Below are positions 28,057-33,124 of a stretch of 64,000 bases of DNA, in pieces. This stretch comes from a virus. Lineage: Duplodnaviria; Caudoviricetes. Where the stretch lies: positions 21,268 to 85,267 of the IMG/VR virus record IMGVR_UViG_2875882051_000001; one strand, written 5' to 3'. Position 1 is the first letter of the stretch; every line of letters begins with the position of its first letter. The notes under the pieces are model-generated. The model had not been told where the DNA came from. It saw only the letters and a list, made by a program, of their open reading frames with translations, and did not search any database. The position numbers were made by a program, and so were the translations under genes.

Positions 28057-28845
28057 TTACTTTATATCATAAAACCAGCTTCCTAAAGTCTCTTTTAATT
28101 CTAGACATTTGCTAATAGGTAAGTTTTGAGTTTCAATCCAAATTCCTTTTTCATCTGAATTAGCATAAATACGAATATATTTAAAATATTCTTGTACATA
28201 CTCCATATCCACTCCTACAAAGCTTCCATCGCCTCTATATCCATTTGGAAGATAAGTAGTTATTACATATCCAGTTGTTTTATTTAATACTCCTTCATTA
28301 AACTCATTCACATCACAATCAGTATTTATACCAGGTACAGACCCTGTTTCACTATATTGATGCCCTACTCTATTAGTAAAGAAATTAGAATTTAATTTCC
28401 ATGGATTATTATTATAGTTTGCTTCCCATAATGGATAATCAGCGATTCTGTTATCTAGGTTATCCATGAAACTAGTGTAAGTATAAATACCTATAGACAT
28501 ATTAGATATCTCTTTAAATTTAGTAATGAATCTTAAAACGTAATCCATTAGTCCATCAAAATTAGTCTCTATATCTAGCATCGGAATGAGGTCACTGGTT
28601 TTATCTTTTATGGCATTATAAAAACTATTGGCCTGAGTTTCTGGCTCAGTAGTTCCAACTAAGAAATGATAGAACCCTGTTTTTAATCCTGCGTAATGTG
28701 CGTTAGAATAATTTGTATCTAAATAGCTATCTTTAAACGTTGTTCCTTCTGTAGCTTTAATATAAACAGCTTCTACTCCTGCTGTTTTTACCTGGTTAAA
28801 ATTTATATTCCCGTTATGATTACTTATATCTATACCTTTAAACAT
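28057..28845 (-). CDS. GH25 muramidase endolysin
   Basis: GIDISNHNG, YIKATEG, GFYHF, LDIE, DCDVN. Confidence 0.92.
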   Translation of the reverse strand: MFKGIDISNHNGNINFNQVKTAGVEAVYIKATEGTTFKDSYLDTNYSNAHYAGLKTGFYHFLVGTTEPETQANSFYNAIKDKTSDLIPMLDIETNFDGLMDYVLRFITKFKEISNMSIGIYTYTSFMDNLDNRIADYPLWEANYNNNPWKLNSNFFTNRVGHQYSETGSVPGINTDCDVNEFNEGVLNKTTGYVITTYLPNGYRGDGSFVGVDMEYVQEYFKYIRIYANSDEKGIWIETQNLPISKCLELKETLGSWFYDIK

Positions 28846-28909
28846 TTAGTATCATCCTTTCTTACTTTAAATAAAAAAATAAGAGTACCCTATAAAGACT
28901 ACTCTAAAA

Positions 28910-29359
28910 TCACGCTTGTACTGTTTGATACTCATCTGCTGGCTTTACAACCAAAGCTTGAACTTTGCTTAATTGATCTGTTAATGCTGCTAATTCAGCT
29001 TTTAAATTCGTGTTATAATCTTGCAACTGTTTAAGTAAAGTAGAATTATCTACAACTGCAGCTTTCCCTTGATTTATTTCTCCTGCTATTGCTTGCCTGA
29101 TTTCTGCCACGTCATCTTGGCTTAGTTCTGGAAACCTAGCTAATAGTAATTTATCAAACTGATCCGCTTTAGATAGCACCTTTTCCTCTACAGTTTTACT
29201 TATTCTAAAGCTTTCATCTACGATATTCCAAATAGCCTTACCTACAGTAATATAATTTTTATTCTTTAGGATTTGCTCTTCAACTCCACTTTTAACTAAT
29301 TTACTTTCTAATACCTTAATTATTAACTTTAATGCTGTTTTTATCATTTTACATACCAC
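28910..29359 (-). CDS. Lysis-module hypothetical protein
   Basis: Between holin and endolysin; C-terminal coiled coil. Confidence 0.6.
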   Translation of the reverse strand: MVCKMIKTALKLIIKVLESKLVKSGVEEQILKNKNYITVGKAIWNIVDESFRISKTVEEKVLSKADQFDKLLLARFPELSQDDVAEIRQAIAGEINQGKAAVVDNSTLLKQLQDYNTNLKAELAALTDQLSKVQALVVKPADEYQTVQA

Positions 29360-29364
29360 CTTTT

Positions 29365-29613
29365 CTAAATTAATTTTTCAATGGAATAAATAAAGAATCC
29401 AAGTAACGTTGTTACCCAGATTCCTATAAACCACTTCATTACACTTGTAAGAGCTTTTAAGTTATCGCATAAACTTCTTAATTCAGCTTTGAAGCTAGCA
29501 TTATCCTGTTCTAGACTATCCAGCTTTTCACCGTGAGCATTAAGTCTCTTTTCATGTGTCTCTAACTTCTCTTCTAGTCTTTTGTGCTTTTCTAAGCATA
29601 ATTCCTCATTCAT
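29365..29613 (-). CDS. XhlA-like holin/haemolysin
   Basis: Coiled coil plus C-terminal TM helix WFIGIWVTTLLGFFIY. Confidence 0.8.
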   Translation of the reverse strand: MNEELCLEKHKRLEEKLETHEKRLNAHGEKLDSLEQDNASFKAELRSLCDNLKALTSVMKWFIGIWVTTLLGFFIYSIEKLI

Positions 29614-29651
29614 GTGTCACCTTCCTTACTTCAGATTTTGTATAAATGATC

Positions 29652-29679
29652 AACAAAAAAGAACTCCTAAAGAGCTCTT
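29652..29679 (-). terminator. Intrinsic terminator downstream of the two-gene moron
   Basis: AAGAGCTCT-TTA-GGAGTTCTT then T-run on the minus strand. Confidence 0.65.
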
Positions 29680-29792
29680 ACAGTTGCTTTGATTTTTTAT
29701 TCATTTTGCTACGTCATTTTTCCCTATGCTTTTACTTCATATTTTTTAGTAATATAGAACGATTCTAATTTCCTAAACTCTTAAAAATTTAA

Positions 29793-30653
29793 TTATTCTT
29801 TTATCCAAATTCCTAAATCATAGTTCATTCCAGTCTTTGCCTTTATATTAGCTAAAGCTATAGCTATCCCTACACTTGTAAGAGTTGAATTGCGCATTTT
29901 TGAATTCCCCCACATATCAGACATAAGTGATAATTCCATGTTTCCATTAATTATACTCTTAGCTTCTTCAAGACTTTTTATCTGTGGAAATTTATTCTCT
30001 ATAATTGAAGCATAATCAATACTTCCAATACTAACATTCAGACATGATGCATATTCAAGATGTTGAAATATACTATTATTATTTTTATCAATTTGAATAT
30101 TAGACCTTATAATTTTACTTAAATTACTATAAGCATCTATTGGATATTCCACTAAATAATTAAGATATCTATTGATAAATATTAATGTTAAAATAACTAT
30201 CTGCCTATGTGTAATTTTAGGTATTATTTCTAACGCCTCATTTAAAACCAATTCCTGAATAGAATTTCCTTGTACAATAGTTCTATTAACTAAAGTTTCA
30301 ACTAATAATTTTTCGGTAAACTTTTCTCCTCGCCTAGCATAATTCTTTTGAGCTTCATAAATAACATATCTAATATCAGGGTCCTGTGTATTATTTATAC
30401 ATTCAGGATTTTTAGAACATAACTTTTCTAAATAATCGTCAAGTATCTTTTCAGCACGCTCTTGAACTATCTTTTCAGCTTTTTCCCCTAAATCATAAAA
30501 ATTACTTTTAAACACGCTCATAGCTATGTCTTTAACCTCAAAATATGATAATCCTGGATTATTCTGAATTACCTTAACTTTTTTCCCCTGAATGTTAGTA
30601 GAATTATCCCCACTATCTATTGTTTGACCATTAAACACCATCTTTCCCTCCAA
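29793..30653 (-). CDS. Uncharacterised protein (resembles LPO_1073/Vpar_1526 family) with N-terminal QTIDSGDNSTNIQG motif
   Basis: Motif seen directly; family recognised from memory; likely start 30641 overlapping the upstream stop. Confidence 0.75.
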   Translation of the reverse strand: MEGKMVFNGQTIDSGDNSTNIQGKKVKVIQNNPGLSYFEVKDIAMSVFKSNFYDLGEKAEKIVQERAEKILDDYLEKLCSKNPECINNTQDPDIRYVIYEAQKNYARRGEKFTEKLLVETLVNRTIVQGNSIQELVLNEALEIIPKITHRQIVILTLIFINRYLNYLVEYPIDAYSNLSKIIRSNIQIDKNNNSIFQHLEYASCLNVSIGSIDYASIIENKFPQIKSLEEAKSIINGNMELSLMSDMWGNSKMRNSTLTSVGIAIALANIKAKTGMNYDLGIWIKE

Positions 30654-30828
30654 TATTCACATTTACGTTTTTGCCACCTTGAATATTGGTAGAATTATTT
30701 CCCGAATTAATAGTTTGTACATTTTTACTATCTAATTTTTTCTTAAAAAATAATCCTCCAATTATTAATATTATAGTAACGCCTATGCCACTAAATATCC
30801 AATCAGCATTCTCAATGATCCATTTCAA
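30631..30828 (-). CDS. 65-aa single-TM protein with C-terminal QTINSGNNSTNIQGGKNVNVNIG motif
   Basis: TM helix aa 10-28; TTG start after AAAGGGG; 3' end overlaps the next gene. Confidence 0.75.
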   Translation of the reverse strand: MKWIIENADWIFSGIGVTIILIIGGLFFKKKLDSKNVQTINSGNNSTNIQGGKNVNVNIGGKDGV

Positions 30829-30864
30829 TTACAACACCCCTTTTATGTAAATATTATACTTTAC

Positions 30865-30893
30865 ATTTTAAGAAATATTACGATATTTGTCAA
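30865..30893 (-). promoter_or_regulatory. Consensus sigmaA promoter TTGACA-N17-TAAAAT driving the two-gene moron
   Basis: Seen directly. Confidence 0.75.
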
Positions 30894-30918
30894 AATTTAT
30901 ATATTAATATATAGCTTT

Positions 30919-31101
30919 TTATCTAATTATCATATGTTTATTATTTAATAATTTTTCTTCCCACAATTTAATACACATGTGATTAAATTTGGTTAGATTT
31001 TATGGCCATTGATTTTCCCTTATAGTCATAATTTCTCCTTCATTACAACAATCGCATATATACTTTACTCCAACTGGTTTTACAGTAAATTCTTTTTCCA
31101 T
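30919..31101 (-). pseudogene. Degenerate zinc-ribbon gene
   Basis: MEKEFTVKPVGVKYICDCC...QWP* then in-frame continuation NLTKFNHMC. Confidence 0.45.
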
Positions 31102-31210
31102 ATGTTTTTTCCTTTTTAATAATTTCAAGCAATAAAAAAGACCTATTACAGTCGATATTATTGTTATATTTATTAAATTATTTTATATTTGCTATCTACA
31201 TCCTATTTTC

Positions 31211-31426
31211 CTATGATGCAGTACTTTCTGTGGTTGTATCTTCCATAGCTCCCATATCTACAAGGACTAATTTTACCTGTTCTTGTAAATCCAAAAGATT
31301 AGGAACATCCTTATATTCGTAAGTGCCTCCTACGATTAATGTAACCCATACTTTTACACATCCACTGTTTTTATTAAATTGCATTCTAAACACTCTCCTT
31401 AAAATTAGATTTATTATGTTAAACAT
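31211..31426 (-). CDS. Small tail-associated protein (CD1375-like); likely start 31384
   Basis: FNKNSGCVKVWVTLI...VPNL pattern after the tail fibre genes. Confidence 0.6.
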   Translation of the reverse strand: MFNIINLILRRVFRMQFNKNSGCVKVWVTLIVGGTYEYKDVPNLLDLQEQVKLVLVDMGAMEDTTTESTAS

Positions 31427-31697
31427 TGGTTTTTCCCATTGCTACTATACTTGTTAACTCTGCATTTGCTTGTGTTAAATCTTCTACTTTTTCTTTTAAA
31501 AGCTCTAATTCCGATTTAGGTATATCTTCATATACAGGCTCATGCGGTGTTTTAGTAGTATCTATTTTAGATACCATTTTCCCTTCTGGAATTTCGGTTT
31601 CTAAATACTGAATACCTCCCTGTGGAACTGAATAAGTACCAGATATTTCCCTATAAATGTAACCAATATCATCATAAATTATTAATGTTTTATTCAT
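31419..31697 (-). CDS. Tail fibre assembly/chaperone-like protein
   Basis: Position after the fibre; ELLKEKVEDL C-terminus. Confidence 0.6.
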   Translation of the reverse strand: MNKTLIIYDDIGYIYREISGTYSVPQGGIQYLETEIPEGKMVSKIDTTKTPHEPVYEDIPKSELELLKEKVEDLTQANAELTSIVAMGKTNV

Positions 31698-31729: not shown

Positions 31730-33124
31730 CTATGCCCATGCAAAGTAGTAAGTTGGCCCACTATATGCGGATGTAACTATAATTGTATTGGTGTTTTCAG
31801 TATGAGAATAACCACTTACTGCACTTCTATCACTAAGATAATAAAAAGTCGTACTACTTGTTTGATTACTATTGCTTATCCAATAAGCTGCCTTTTGTGC
31901 TCCTGCACTAAATCCTATTATTATTACTGATGGAATAAATGGTAATGTAATAGTATCTGTAGTGTTTGCAGTATGATTTACTACTCCACTAGTATATTGT
32001 CTTCCACCTAAACTTTCTATTGTTGCATTGCCAGTAATTTTATTGCCATTCACATATGCAGTTTTACCATTTATGATGTCAGCTGCGACTGCGGTTGCAT
32101 CTGACGTAAATGTGCCAAGTATCCCCCCCACAGTCGTACCAGCTTTTATAACTGAAGCTGCTAAATTTGTTATTATGGCCTTAATTTTTCCTAATCCATT
32201 ATGAAATCCTGCTGGTATTATATATTCCTGATTATTATTTGTTAAAGTAAATGAAACAGCTCCATTATTAGGCATTGTCCCAGTTAACCCTGTATCATTA
32301 TCATTACTGAATTTTTTAGTTGCTAGTACATGAGAAACATCAGCGTCACCCTCTGCACTAGCTTTGATAAAAAAACAATCACCTATTGAGTTATACCAAA
32401 CCGTATACGCCTTTCCTGATATTAGGTTGGGTGATGTTGTTGTTCCTGGTTTATATAATTTTTTCCCATTTATAGTGGTTGCTGCTCCGCCATTGTTTGC
32501 ACTTGCTATAAAAGTTATTGGATATCCATTTACTAACGTTCCTTTGATTGCAAGTGTTATCGCTGTAGCAGATCCACCTGCTATCTGATACACCATATCT
32601 GACAATTGAGTATTAATATTATTAATGCTCACACTTAATTGGTCTACCCTAGTACTCACTTCATCAACATCTTTTTTCTTAGCAAAAAGTATTGTTGGAT
32701 CTATTTTAAGCGTAATGCTTGATGTATTAGATACTGCTATTATCATTTTCATGTTTATTTCTTTTGTACTTCCATCTGCTGGCAAGGGCTTATATGTCTC
32801 CGCACATTTTGCTACAGCTAACATATTGTTATTTGCATCAAATATTCCATATTCACGAATAAAAAAACCACCTACATCTGGCGGAATCAGAACTTCTATA
32901 TTAATCCAATTAGAATTATTTTCATCTACTGCTACATGACCTATAGCCCCTTCCCATACTGTATGAACTAGATCTGTTTGACTTTCAGTTGGATTATAAT
33001 AGCTTCCATTACCATCTCCAACCTTCATTTTGACAAAATCAATTTTATTTCCTAAGCCAATAGCATTAGCTATTTGGGCTTTTCCTACATTAGTTAAAAT
33101 AGAATAATAACTTTCTGCCATCAA
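31730..33124 (-). CDS. Tail fibre protein (P2 gpH-like N-terminus)
   Basis: LTNVGKAQIANA, VGGFFIREYGIFD; DATAVAADIINGKTAYVNG repeat. Confidence 0.88.
   Translation of the reverse strand: MMAESYYSILTNVGKAQIANAIGLGNKIDFVKMKVGDGNGSYYNPTESQTDLVHTVWEGAIGHVAVDENNSNWINIEVLIPPDVGGFFIREYGIFDANNNMLAVAKCAETYKPLPADGSTKEINMKMIIAVSNTSSITLKIDPTILFAKKKDVDEVSTRVDQLSVSINNINTQLSDMVYQIAGGSATAITLAIKGTLVNGYPITFIASANNGGAATTINGKKLYKPGTTTSPNLISGKAYTVWYNSIGDCFFIKASAEGDADVSHVLATKKFSNDNDTGLTGTMPNNGAVSFTLTNNNQEYIIPAGFHNGLGKIKAIITNLAASVIKAGTTVGGILGTFTSDATAVAADIINGKTAYVNGNKITGNATIESLGGRQYTSGVVNHTANTTDTITLPFIPSVIIIGFSAGAQKAAYWISNSNQTSSTTFYYLSDRSAVSGYSHTENTNTIIVTSAYSGPTYYFAWA

Follow-up and report, generated by a model that had tools for sequence, protein, structure and literature searches.

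Why would a prophage carry a small membrane peptide whose cytoplasmic end repeats the beginning of the larger protein encoded directly behind it? We address this question for a two-gene cassette at positions 29652–30893 of a 64,000-nucleotide (nt) stretch of DNA, the window, taken from an 85-kb IMG/VR provirus. All coordinates given without a locus name are positions in this window, and the cassette and its flanking features all lie on the minus strand. An earlier note, made from the letters of the DNA alone, had read the cassette as a moron that encodes a membrane effector and a sensor matched through a prion-like motif. Our analysis indicates that the two proteins very probably form a conserved pair that is coupled by the shared motif. 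What the pair does is a matter of graded likelihood, and we set out the evidence on its partners, variants and genomic settings before weighing the possible mechanisms.

The small gene (30631..30828) starts at a TTG codon behind AAAGGGGTG and encodes a protein of 65 amino acids (aa) composed of a short stub, one transmembrane (TM) helix, a KKK cluster and an N/Q/G-rich tail. It reads MKWIIENADW-IFSGIGVTIILIIGGLFF-KKK and onwards, then the tail QTINSGNNSTNIQGGKNVNVNIGGKDGV, with an N-terminal stub of 8–9 residues. The helix, as read from the sequence, covers residues ~10–28 (WIFSGIGVTIILIIGGLFF; 30745..30801) and carries small-xxx-small packing motifs. Because lysines follow the helix, the positive-inside rule predicts that the tail is cytoplasmic. 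The tail motif occupies residues 38–61 (QTINSGNNSTNIQGGKNVNVNIGG; 30646..30717). The large gene (29793..30641) encodes a member of the LPO_1073/Vpar_1526 family (LPO) that is 282 aa long from the ATG at 30641 or 286 aa long from the TTG at 30653, so that the two genes overlap by 11 or 23 nt, respectively. The ATG is the likelier start: a Shine–Dalgarno sequence, GGAGGG, lies at a suitable distance from it, inside the last codons of the small gene, and the 282-aa form is the one present in the protein collection (P0001). The N-terminus of the large protein is (MVFNG)QTIDSGDNSTNIQGKKVKV, with the head motif at residues 10–32 of the 286-aa numbering (QTIDSGDNSTNIQGKKVKVIQNN; 30558..30626). Tail and head are identical at 12 of the first 14 residues and at 13 of 19 aligned residues. 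The earlier note had described a 65-aa protein with one TM helix and a partner identical to its tail at 12 of the first 14 residues, and both descriptions are correct.

We sampled 41 related loci, 28 from species-representative genomes and 13 from viral contigs, which gave 33 non-redundant pairs. In 31 of these 33, the LPO gene is directly preceded by an open reading frame (ORF) of 61–116 aa that has one or two TM helices, stops at the LPO start or runs past it, and carries a matching tail. The pairing extends over at least eight phyla, among them Bacillota, Pseudomonadota, Cyanobacteriota, Actinomycetota, Bacteroidota and Kiritimatiellia, with one exception in Treponema that is described below. 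It was found in Clostridium, Bacillaceae, Desulfosporosinus, Carnobacteriaceae, Lachnospiraceae and Faecalibacterium, in Neptuniibacter, Vibrio, Aquirhabdus and Paraburkholderia, in two cyanobacteria, in Cryobacterium, Microbacterium and Mycobacterium, in Chitinophaga and in a metagenome-assembled genome (MAG) of Kiritimatiellia. The motif differs between clades and is altered on both partners together. Where the window has NSTNIQGG in the tail and NSTNIQGK in the head, Vibrio has KQVQKGGKNSTNIQVGG and KQVQKGGANSTNFQVEE, Paraburkholderia has NVQAGRDA and NAQAGRDV, and Faecalibacterium has NNTQIGVQNNF and TATQIGQQNNYY.

This co-variation is strong in permutation analysis. The mean local-alignment score is 53.4 for cognate tail–head combinations versus 32.8 for non-cognate ones, and in 10,000 permutations the observed value was never attained. 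With the sample reduced to nine clades, each represented by one locus (<40% domain identity), the corresponding scores are 54.6 and 30.3, a result matched in 0 of 20,000 permutations, and seven of the nine tails score highest with their cognate head. A tail scores 55.5 against the head of its own partner, compared with 38.4 against the orthologous tails of distant clades. Tails are therefore closer to their own heads than to their orthologues, which argues against independent drift after one ancient duplication. At the DNA level, 195 of 368 identical residues with degenerate codons share their codon, where 185 would be expected from local codon usage; in the window, the same codon is used at only 5 of the 13 identical residues (serine, for instance, is TCG in one copy and AGT in the other). 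The lack of an excess of shared codons indicates that the likeness of the motifs is maintained at the protein level and does not stem from recent duplication. Chance and recent duplication, considered as sources of the motif match, are thus rejected by the permutation and codon evidence, and the recurrence of the same co-varying pairing in related loci argues that the match in the window is not accidental. A co-varying small TM ORF upstream of the homologues of the large protein was the check that the earlier note had proposed, and its outcome is positive. One locus differs from the others at the codon level: at L041 (4802–5100), 15 of 16 identical tail and head residues share codons versus 8.2 expected, which suggests that the motif DNA was recently converted or duplicated there, whereas other loci show no excess.

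The motif is terminal, ~20–25 aa long (~24 aa in the window), consists to 51–59% of N, Q, G, S and T, contains almost no proline and is disordered in models of the monomers. Across loci, tail cores contain 59% N/Q/G/S/T and 0.1% proline, compared with 27% and 2.9% in LPO domains, and hydrophobic residues alternate along the motif (NVNVNIGG, KVKVIQNN). These general properties agree with those of known amyloid signalling motifs (compare 10.1101/2020.01.06.895854 and 10.1101/2024.11.07.622273).

The large protein matches the family profile NF045477 with 279.7 bits (cut-off 45; E 2.4e-83) over profile positions 1–257 of 257. A precomputed PF28206 match is present on all 120 homologues listed, and the protein also matches phrog_19542 (E 5e-21). 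By sequence, it is a full-length member of the LPO_1073/Vpar_1526 family (NF045477, PF28206), which agrees with the resemblance to an uncharacterised family suggested earlier. We found no paper characterising this family in the searchable literature. It is large: at E<=0.001, phmmer retrieves 1,692 representative clusters (defined at 50% identity), of which 1,028 reach E<=1e-10. In an AlphaFold2 (AF2) model (pLDDT 83, pTM 0.79), the LPO_1073 domain (29796..30554) is all-helical and residues 1–32, which hold the motif head, are disordered (pLDDT <50). We also modelled a 376-aa relative with two tandem motif copies (P0196; pLDDT 84) and inspected it for an intramolecular beta-arch; its residues 1–54 are disordered. 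Foldseek searches of both models against the PDB and BFVD returned nothing at E<=0.001. The best VIA-align hits for both, at Z 7.6–8.0, are designed or generic helical bundles and cytomegalovirus IE1, which is within noise for helical models, and weak winged-helix-like rows at Z ~5.2–5.7 cover residues 146–276. A profile search against PDB sequences gave nothing below E 0.77, a Pfam scan of 20 LPO family members gave nothing consistent, and Pfam and NCBIfam showed no NTPase, TPR or PIN domain in the large protein, the LPO_1073 domain being the only one found. No PADLOC model matches the LPO protein, and a HEPN-type Rx4-6H motif was not seen when the conserved columns of the family alignment were inspected by eye. 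As far as the predicted structures and these searches reach, the LPO domain is without a recognisable relative outside its own family.

The architecture of the family provides an indication of how labour is divided between the two proteins. About 245 of 254 sampled LPO members have a short N-terminal head with the motif G-D/N-x-S-T-N-x-Q (223 of them were picked up by an automatic rule, and all listed sequences among the remaining 22 carry the motif too). In place of this arrangement, a minority of members carry their N-terminal partner in the same chain. TM-motif-LPO fusions are found in P0092, P0202, P0204, P0215, P0243, P0065 and P0255, and TM-LPO fusions in which the motif is absent or vestigial in P0083 and P0139. 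In P0135 and P0220, an HNH nuclease replaces the N-terminal motif, and this HNH part matches the PADLOC models for CBASS, SAVED-HNH and SduA-type nuclease effectors and for PDC-M68A. The membrane parts combined with LPO are of at least four unrelated types: the 'NKEWLFSGIG' single helix, a 2-TM type of proteobacteria and cyanobacteria, a 2-TM type of actinobacteria and a clostridial single helix. Read in the way customary for conflict systems, a constant C-terminal LPO domain with a swappable N-terminal part, be it a membrane helix or a nuclease, suggests that LPO is the sensor or regulator and the N-terminal part the effector. From this domain architecture we somewhat favour LPO as the sensor and the TM peptide as the effector. 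At L040 (1200–3370), the gene for a 2-TM small protein with the tail GGVGIQAGGDVKM precedes a tandem of two LPO paralogues, whose heads, GAGAIALQAKGNI and GEGAVALQAGGNI, both match that tail, a one-effector/two-sensor arrangement. The actinobacterial locus L022 has two motif repeats on the small-protein tail and one on the LPO head.

The small protein belongs to no family of its own and has no significant match in Pfam (best E 0.0035, below the cut-off). Its aligned homologues, small ORFs of 61–86 aa, share the consensus W-I-x-x-N-K-E-W-x-F-S-G-I-G, and the Clostridium perfringens homologue is an annotated gene. At 65 aa, which is taken up by one TM helix and the tail, the protein is too short to hold a HeLo, HeLo-like, Bell or Babybell domain; its length and the Pfam scan thus bear out the earlier view of the effector as a single helix. 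A search with the single sequence found no longer, fused relatives, which were later recovered by a profile search. The first 51 residues match positions 1–52 of the 203 positions of the PADLOC PDC-M43A profile (E 1e-8). The same N-terminal TM module, M-x-W-I-x-x-N-K-E-W-x-F-S-G-I-G, heads PDC-M43A proteins (P0258, P0260, P0262, P0264, P0265 and P0268; L051, 6001–7646), whose chains continue with an N/Q/T-rich 'VNVNIG' linker and then a receiver-like domain of ~120 aa. It also forms the N-terminus of other, unrelated proteins (P0256, P0257 and P0269). Its presence on PDC-M43A and on unrelated C-terminal domains suggests a mobile membrane module of an effector-like, or anchoring, kind.

The genomic surroundings of the pair are often those of conflict systems. 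In three taxa, it lies between hsdM-hsdS and hsdR of a type I restriction–modification system; in Treponema, it lies beside hsdS and a GIY-YIG gene; on a Streptomyces chromosome, it follows a ScoMcrA_N-HNH gene; and in Bacteroidota, it is cargo of an integrase/RteC integrative element. In many C. perfringens genomes, the pair is embedded in a prophage tail module. In Escherichia coli and in one viral contig, it occupies the interval between P2 gpA and the portal gene gpQ, which has been defined as an anti-phage hotspot by Rousset et al. 2022 (PMC9122126). The E. coli pair is found at L052 (plasmid NZ_CP148400.1; 4752–5864) and on the chromosomes NZ_CP028732.1 and NZ_CP121151.1, and consists of an 81-aa 2-TM protein ending in SQSVGDNSTAVQARGDIKI and an LPO protein starting with KQQIGNNSYAIQAGNNVNV. 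Of 5,426 complete genomes, 6 contain this allele (WP_000687980 and WP_000490525), and Table S5 of Rousset et al. 2022 lists the two proteins only as 'hypothetical' (PMC9122126). Next to the E. coli pair, the opposite strand carries three 'hypothetical' genes in the same orientation as one another, for proteins of 227, 359 and 333 aa, which may be another system. Taken with the modules shared with PADLOC effectors, the genomic associations make a role in conflict or defence probable. The recurrence of the pairing across phyla in phage-defence hotspots suggests that it is probably an undescribed tag-coupled, and possibly amyloid-signalling, immune module. The earlier proposal that the large protein senses and the small TM peptide acts is therefore upheld in part: the fusions support the split into sensor and effector, and the contexts point to defence.

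In the window, the cassette has its own transcription signals. A sigma-70-type promoter (30893->30865) comprises a −35 element TTGACA, a 17-nt spacer and a −10 element TAAAAT; it matches the consensus at 11 of 12 positions and is the top-scoring site within 29300–31500. The two genes are followed by an intrinsic-terminator-like hairpin of nine pairs followed by TTTTTGTT (29650..29679; hairpin and T-run 29679->29659). The cassette sits between tail-fibre genes on one side and XhlA/endolysin lysis genes on the other, and its GC content is 0.23–0.26, compared with 0.30–0.36 in the flanks. The upstream late module contains a tail-collar fibre gene (31730..33124; PF12571, E 2e-59). The lysis region downstream (28057..29613) encodes an XhlA-like protein (29365–29613; PF10779), a 149-aa phrog_9492 protein (28910–29359) and a GH25 endolysin (28057–28845). 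The TTGACA-N17-TAAAAT promoter, the two overlapping genes followed by a terminator and the insertion between tail and holin genes had all been read correctly in the earlier note. So had the moron: with its own promoter and terminator, a slot between late-gene modules, a GC content unlike that of the flanks and the same pair occurring outside phages too, the cassette is a prophage moron, presumably dispensable for the phage.

Directly upstream of the promoter lies a decayed small gene for a zinc-ribbon-like protein (30919..31101; MEKEFTVKPVGVKYICDCCNEGE...). It has an in-frame TAA at 31000–31002 and has lost the second CxxC, with CIKLW in its place. Intact copies of 63–85 aa (CxxC...CxxCG...YPLIRY) precede the pair in eight loci from related Firmicute prophages (L001, L003, L005, L007, L009, L010, L013 and L047). 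This gene may belong to the system as a third component or be no more than a phage gene that is conserved. A second strain (run X2) has a 1-base insertion behind 31104. Three RNA-seq runs with the same species label contain only 5–23 reads that fit the neighbouring lysis genes in part; the cassette received no reads. The sequenced strain evidently lacks this prophage, so that the zero count is uninformative on expression of the cassette. The partial matches, at 28696–29391 with 95–99% identity, continue into unlike sequence, indicating that the strain has a related but different prophage lysis module.

We propose that the cassette is a prophage-borne member of a widespread, uncharacterised two-gene conflict module. 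Its first gene would supply a single-pass membrane peptide with a cytoplasmic motif tail of ~24 residues, and its second gene, translationally coupled to the first, a cytoplasmic LPO protein with the same motif on a disordered head. Through the motif, a homotypic contact of the beta type would link the membrane peptide, as effector, to LPO as the constant sensor or regulator. A phage cue would drive assembly of LPO; the clustered heads would then nucleate a cross-beta stack that recruits or templates the peptide tails, so that the helices gather and breach the membrane. The outcome would be abortive infection (Abi), or exclusion of a superinfecting phage, to the protection of the lysogen population. 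We assign a probability of roughly 55% to this model as a whole, short of its amyloid step. That the contact is a true amyloid with prion-like templating rather than a discrete beta-contact is a tentative suggestion that we consider less probable than its negation. More doubtful still is the broadest version, in which LPO and its small partners are a large unrecognised Abi family, borne by phages and islands, that works by prion-like templating of the co-evolving motif, with an NTPase-free sensor of new fold and the smallest effector yet, a single TM helix.

Several points weigh against this model. The loci were drawn with three peptide patterns and form a non-exhaustive sample. In a Treponema MAG (L012, 3575–5020), the LPO head keeps the motif (KQINGKNSINQQAEE), and the protein encoded upstream, a 125-aa TM/coiled-coil protein, has no matching tail. 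The role of LPO as a 'sensor' is deduced only from its position in domain architectures, because the protein has no recognisable sensing, NTPase or oligomerisation fold. The proposed effector is a bare helix, without a regulated domain of the Bell or HeLo type that would keep it harmless before activation. If the decayed zinc-ribbon gene were a required third component, the copy in the window could be inactive. Finally, the TM-LPO proteins that lack the motif (P0083 and P0139) imply that a peptide bond can replace it, which fits a constitutive tether that involves no signalling as well.

Such a tether is the alternative that competes most directly with the proposed model, and we consider it unlikely. 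Here the motif would be a discrete, stable beta-sheet contact that anchors LPO at the inner face of the membrane, and LPO would be the active part; it might, for example, block DNA entry in superinfection exclusion or act on a membrane-proximal target, with the peptide serving only as an anchor. The natural TM-motif-LPO and TM-LPO chains show that covalent anchoring is an accepted alternative, the combination of one LPO domain with TM modules of at least four unrelated kinds suggests that membrane location itself is conserved, and a prophage-borne module with its own promoter is typical of exclusion genes. Vpar_1526 is, moreover, among the proteins detected in envelope-fraction proteomics of Veillonella (PMC5491611). 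The fusions are explained equally well by a tether and by the proposed model, but the tether accounts less well for three other observations. The HNH-LPO fusions have no membrane part and place a classical suicide or defence nuclease where the TM module would be; the TM module recurs at the N-terminus of unrelated proteins, PDC-M43A among them, which is how a swappable effector would behave; and a single small protein can suffice for two LPO paralogues in tandem, as at L040. Nor does a mere anchor have an obvious need for a split gene and a duplicated motif that co-evolves across eight phyla.

The compact, overlapping and translationally coupled genes, their location on mobile elements and the combination of a small hydrophobic peptide with a larger soluble partner are also what an addiction module of the toxin–antitoxin type would show. 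The TM peptide would then be constitutively toxic, like a holin or a type I toxin, until captured through its tail by the LPO head, and would be freed when LPO is lost or decays through loss of the element or host shut-off. We regard this as improbable. TM-motif-LPO fusions would be permanent toxin–antitoxin chimeras, the HNH-LPO fusions fit a sensor and an effector better, and the coupling runs from toxin to antitoxin, the less usual order; the explanation also overlaps the proposed model, as many Abi systems behave as toxin–antitoxin pairs. An accessory role in the phage's own lysis or morphogenesis, by regulating holin timing or tail assembly of the resident prophage, is suggested by the position of the window pair between the tail fibre and XhlA and by the C. 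perfringens pair, which lies in the tail block and is co-oriented with late genes. It is nevertheless very improbable: the pair is also found in type I restriction–modification operons, beside McrA-HNH in Streptomyces and in the Bacteroidota integrative element, it has its own promoter and terminator, and tblastn against 50,697 deposited phage genomes gave no match at E<=1e-5.

The described systems closest to the pair include Bab/Agp of E. coli ECOR25 (Ibarlosa et al., 10.1101/2024.11.07.622273; cited in PMC13601566 as Nat Microbiol 2025), an Abi system with amyloid signalling through the BASS11 motif. Both have adjacent, co-oriented genes in a prophage defence hotspot, a G/N/Q-rich motif of ~20–25 aa shared by the C-terminus of the effector and the N-terminus of its partner, a small membrane-targeting protein and membrane damage as the proposed output. 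They differ in their domains, the LPO pair having a bare 65-aa single-pass peptide instead of a 'Babybell' protein and an LPO_1073 partner instead of TPR-GreA/B-C-PIN (TGP). Amyloid formation and defence have been demonstrated for Bab/Agp, whereas the LPO pair is known here from sequence. The bacterial Bell/NOD-like receptor (NLR) pairs with motifs BASS1–10 (Dyrka et al., 10.1101/2020.01.06.895854) and the fungal HeLo or HeLo-like/NLR pairs such as HET-S/NWD2 likewise share a motif between effector C-terminus and receptor N-terminus and occur as 'all-in-one' fusions beside split pairs. The two effector repeats and one receptor repeat of L022 recall HET-S/NWD2. In contrast to these systems, the LPO pair has neither an NB-ARC or NACHT NTPase nor a Bell or HeLo domain. 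BASS pairs have also been reported to be specific to multicellular bacteria (Actinobacteria and Cyanobacteria; 10.1101/2020.01.06.895854), whereas members of the LPO family are frequent in unicellular Bacillota and Proteobacteria and occur on phages as well.

The motif itself resembles the RHIM/PP/BASS3 signature G-phi-Q-phi-G (10.1101/2020.01.06.895854) in having a central phi-Q-x-G in a G/N-rich setting, and the relatives at L016–L018, L040 and L042 read G-I/V-Q-A-G-G, a partial fit. In the window, however, the core is N-I-Q-G-G in the tail and N-I-Q-G-K in the head, neither of which is G-phi-Q-phi-G, and the resemblance of NIQGGKNV to the RHIM core claimed in the earlier note is therefore a loose one. 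PDC-M43A shares the N-terminal TM module and the 'VNVNIG'-like N/Q/T-rich linker but continues into its receiver-like domain in the same chain; the small protein matches only positions 1–52 of the 203 of the PDC-M43A profile, and PDC-M43B is unrelated to LPO_1073 (hhalign probability 0.2% against true M43B). The pair also recalls the small-TM effectors of other Abi systems, such as those of the hotspot studied by Rousset et al. 2022, in which, within phage-borne hotspots, a minimal membrane protein beside a larger cytoplasmic partner presumably causes suicide by membrane damage (PMC9122126). Coupling in those systems is by second messengers or unknown means, whereas here it involves a duplicated, co-evolving peptide motif.

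The earlier comparison with fungal NLR/HeLo, BASS and Bab/Agp pairs thus applies to the motif layout and co-variation, but not to family membership, since the domains differ. We conclude that the pair works like an amyloid-signalling pair and, judged by its domains and by the RHIM core, stands outside the described families. No description of LPO_1073 pairs was found in the searchable literature, although papers beyond that search could hold one. New here are the sensor family, the minimal effector and the wide distribution in unicellular bacteria and prophages.

To our knowledge, animal necroptosis and fungal NLR systems are established cases of amyloid or prion-like signalling, to which bacterial defence has so far added one, Bab/Agp. 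The existence of an E. coli representative makes the question of whether the LPO pair belongs with them directly testable with standard coliphage panels. Should the motif be only a tether, the pair would still be a clear natural case of a split membrane protein joined by a co-evolving peptide zipper. If the motif does template its partner, tag-coupled assembly would be a general wiring principle of bacterial immunity, and a function would be at hand for a large 'hypothetical' family that extends from Clostridium prophages to the E. coli P2 hotspot, Streptomyces, cyanobacteria and Bacteroidota. Mechanistic and synthetic studies would also gain a signalling tag and an effector that are very small and can be swapped. 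And if the family as a whole proved to be prion-like, amyloid signalling would be a common feature of ordinary unicellular bacteria and of the prophages that they carry, in eight phyla or more, and not confined to multicellular lineages or to Bell/NLR systems.

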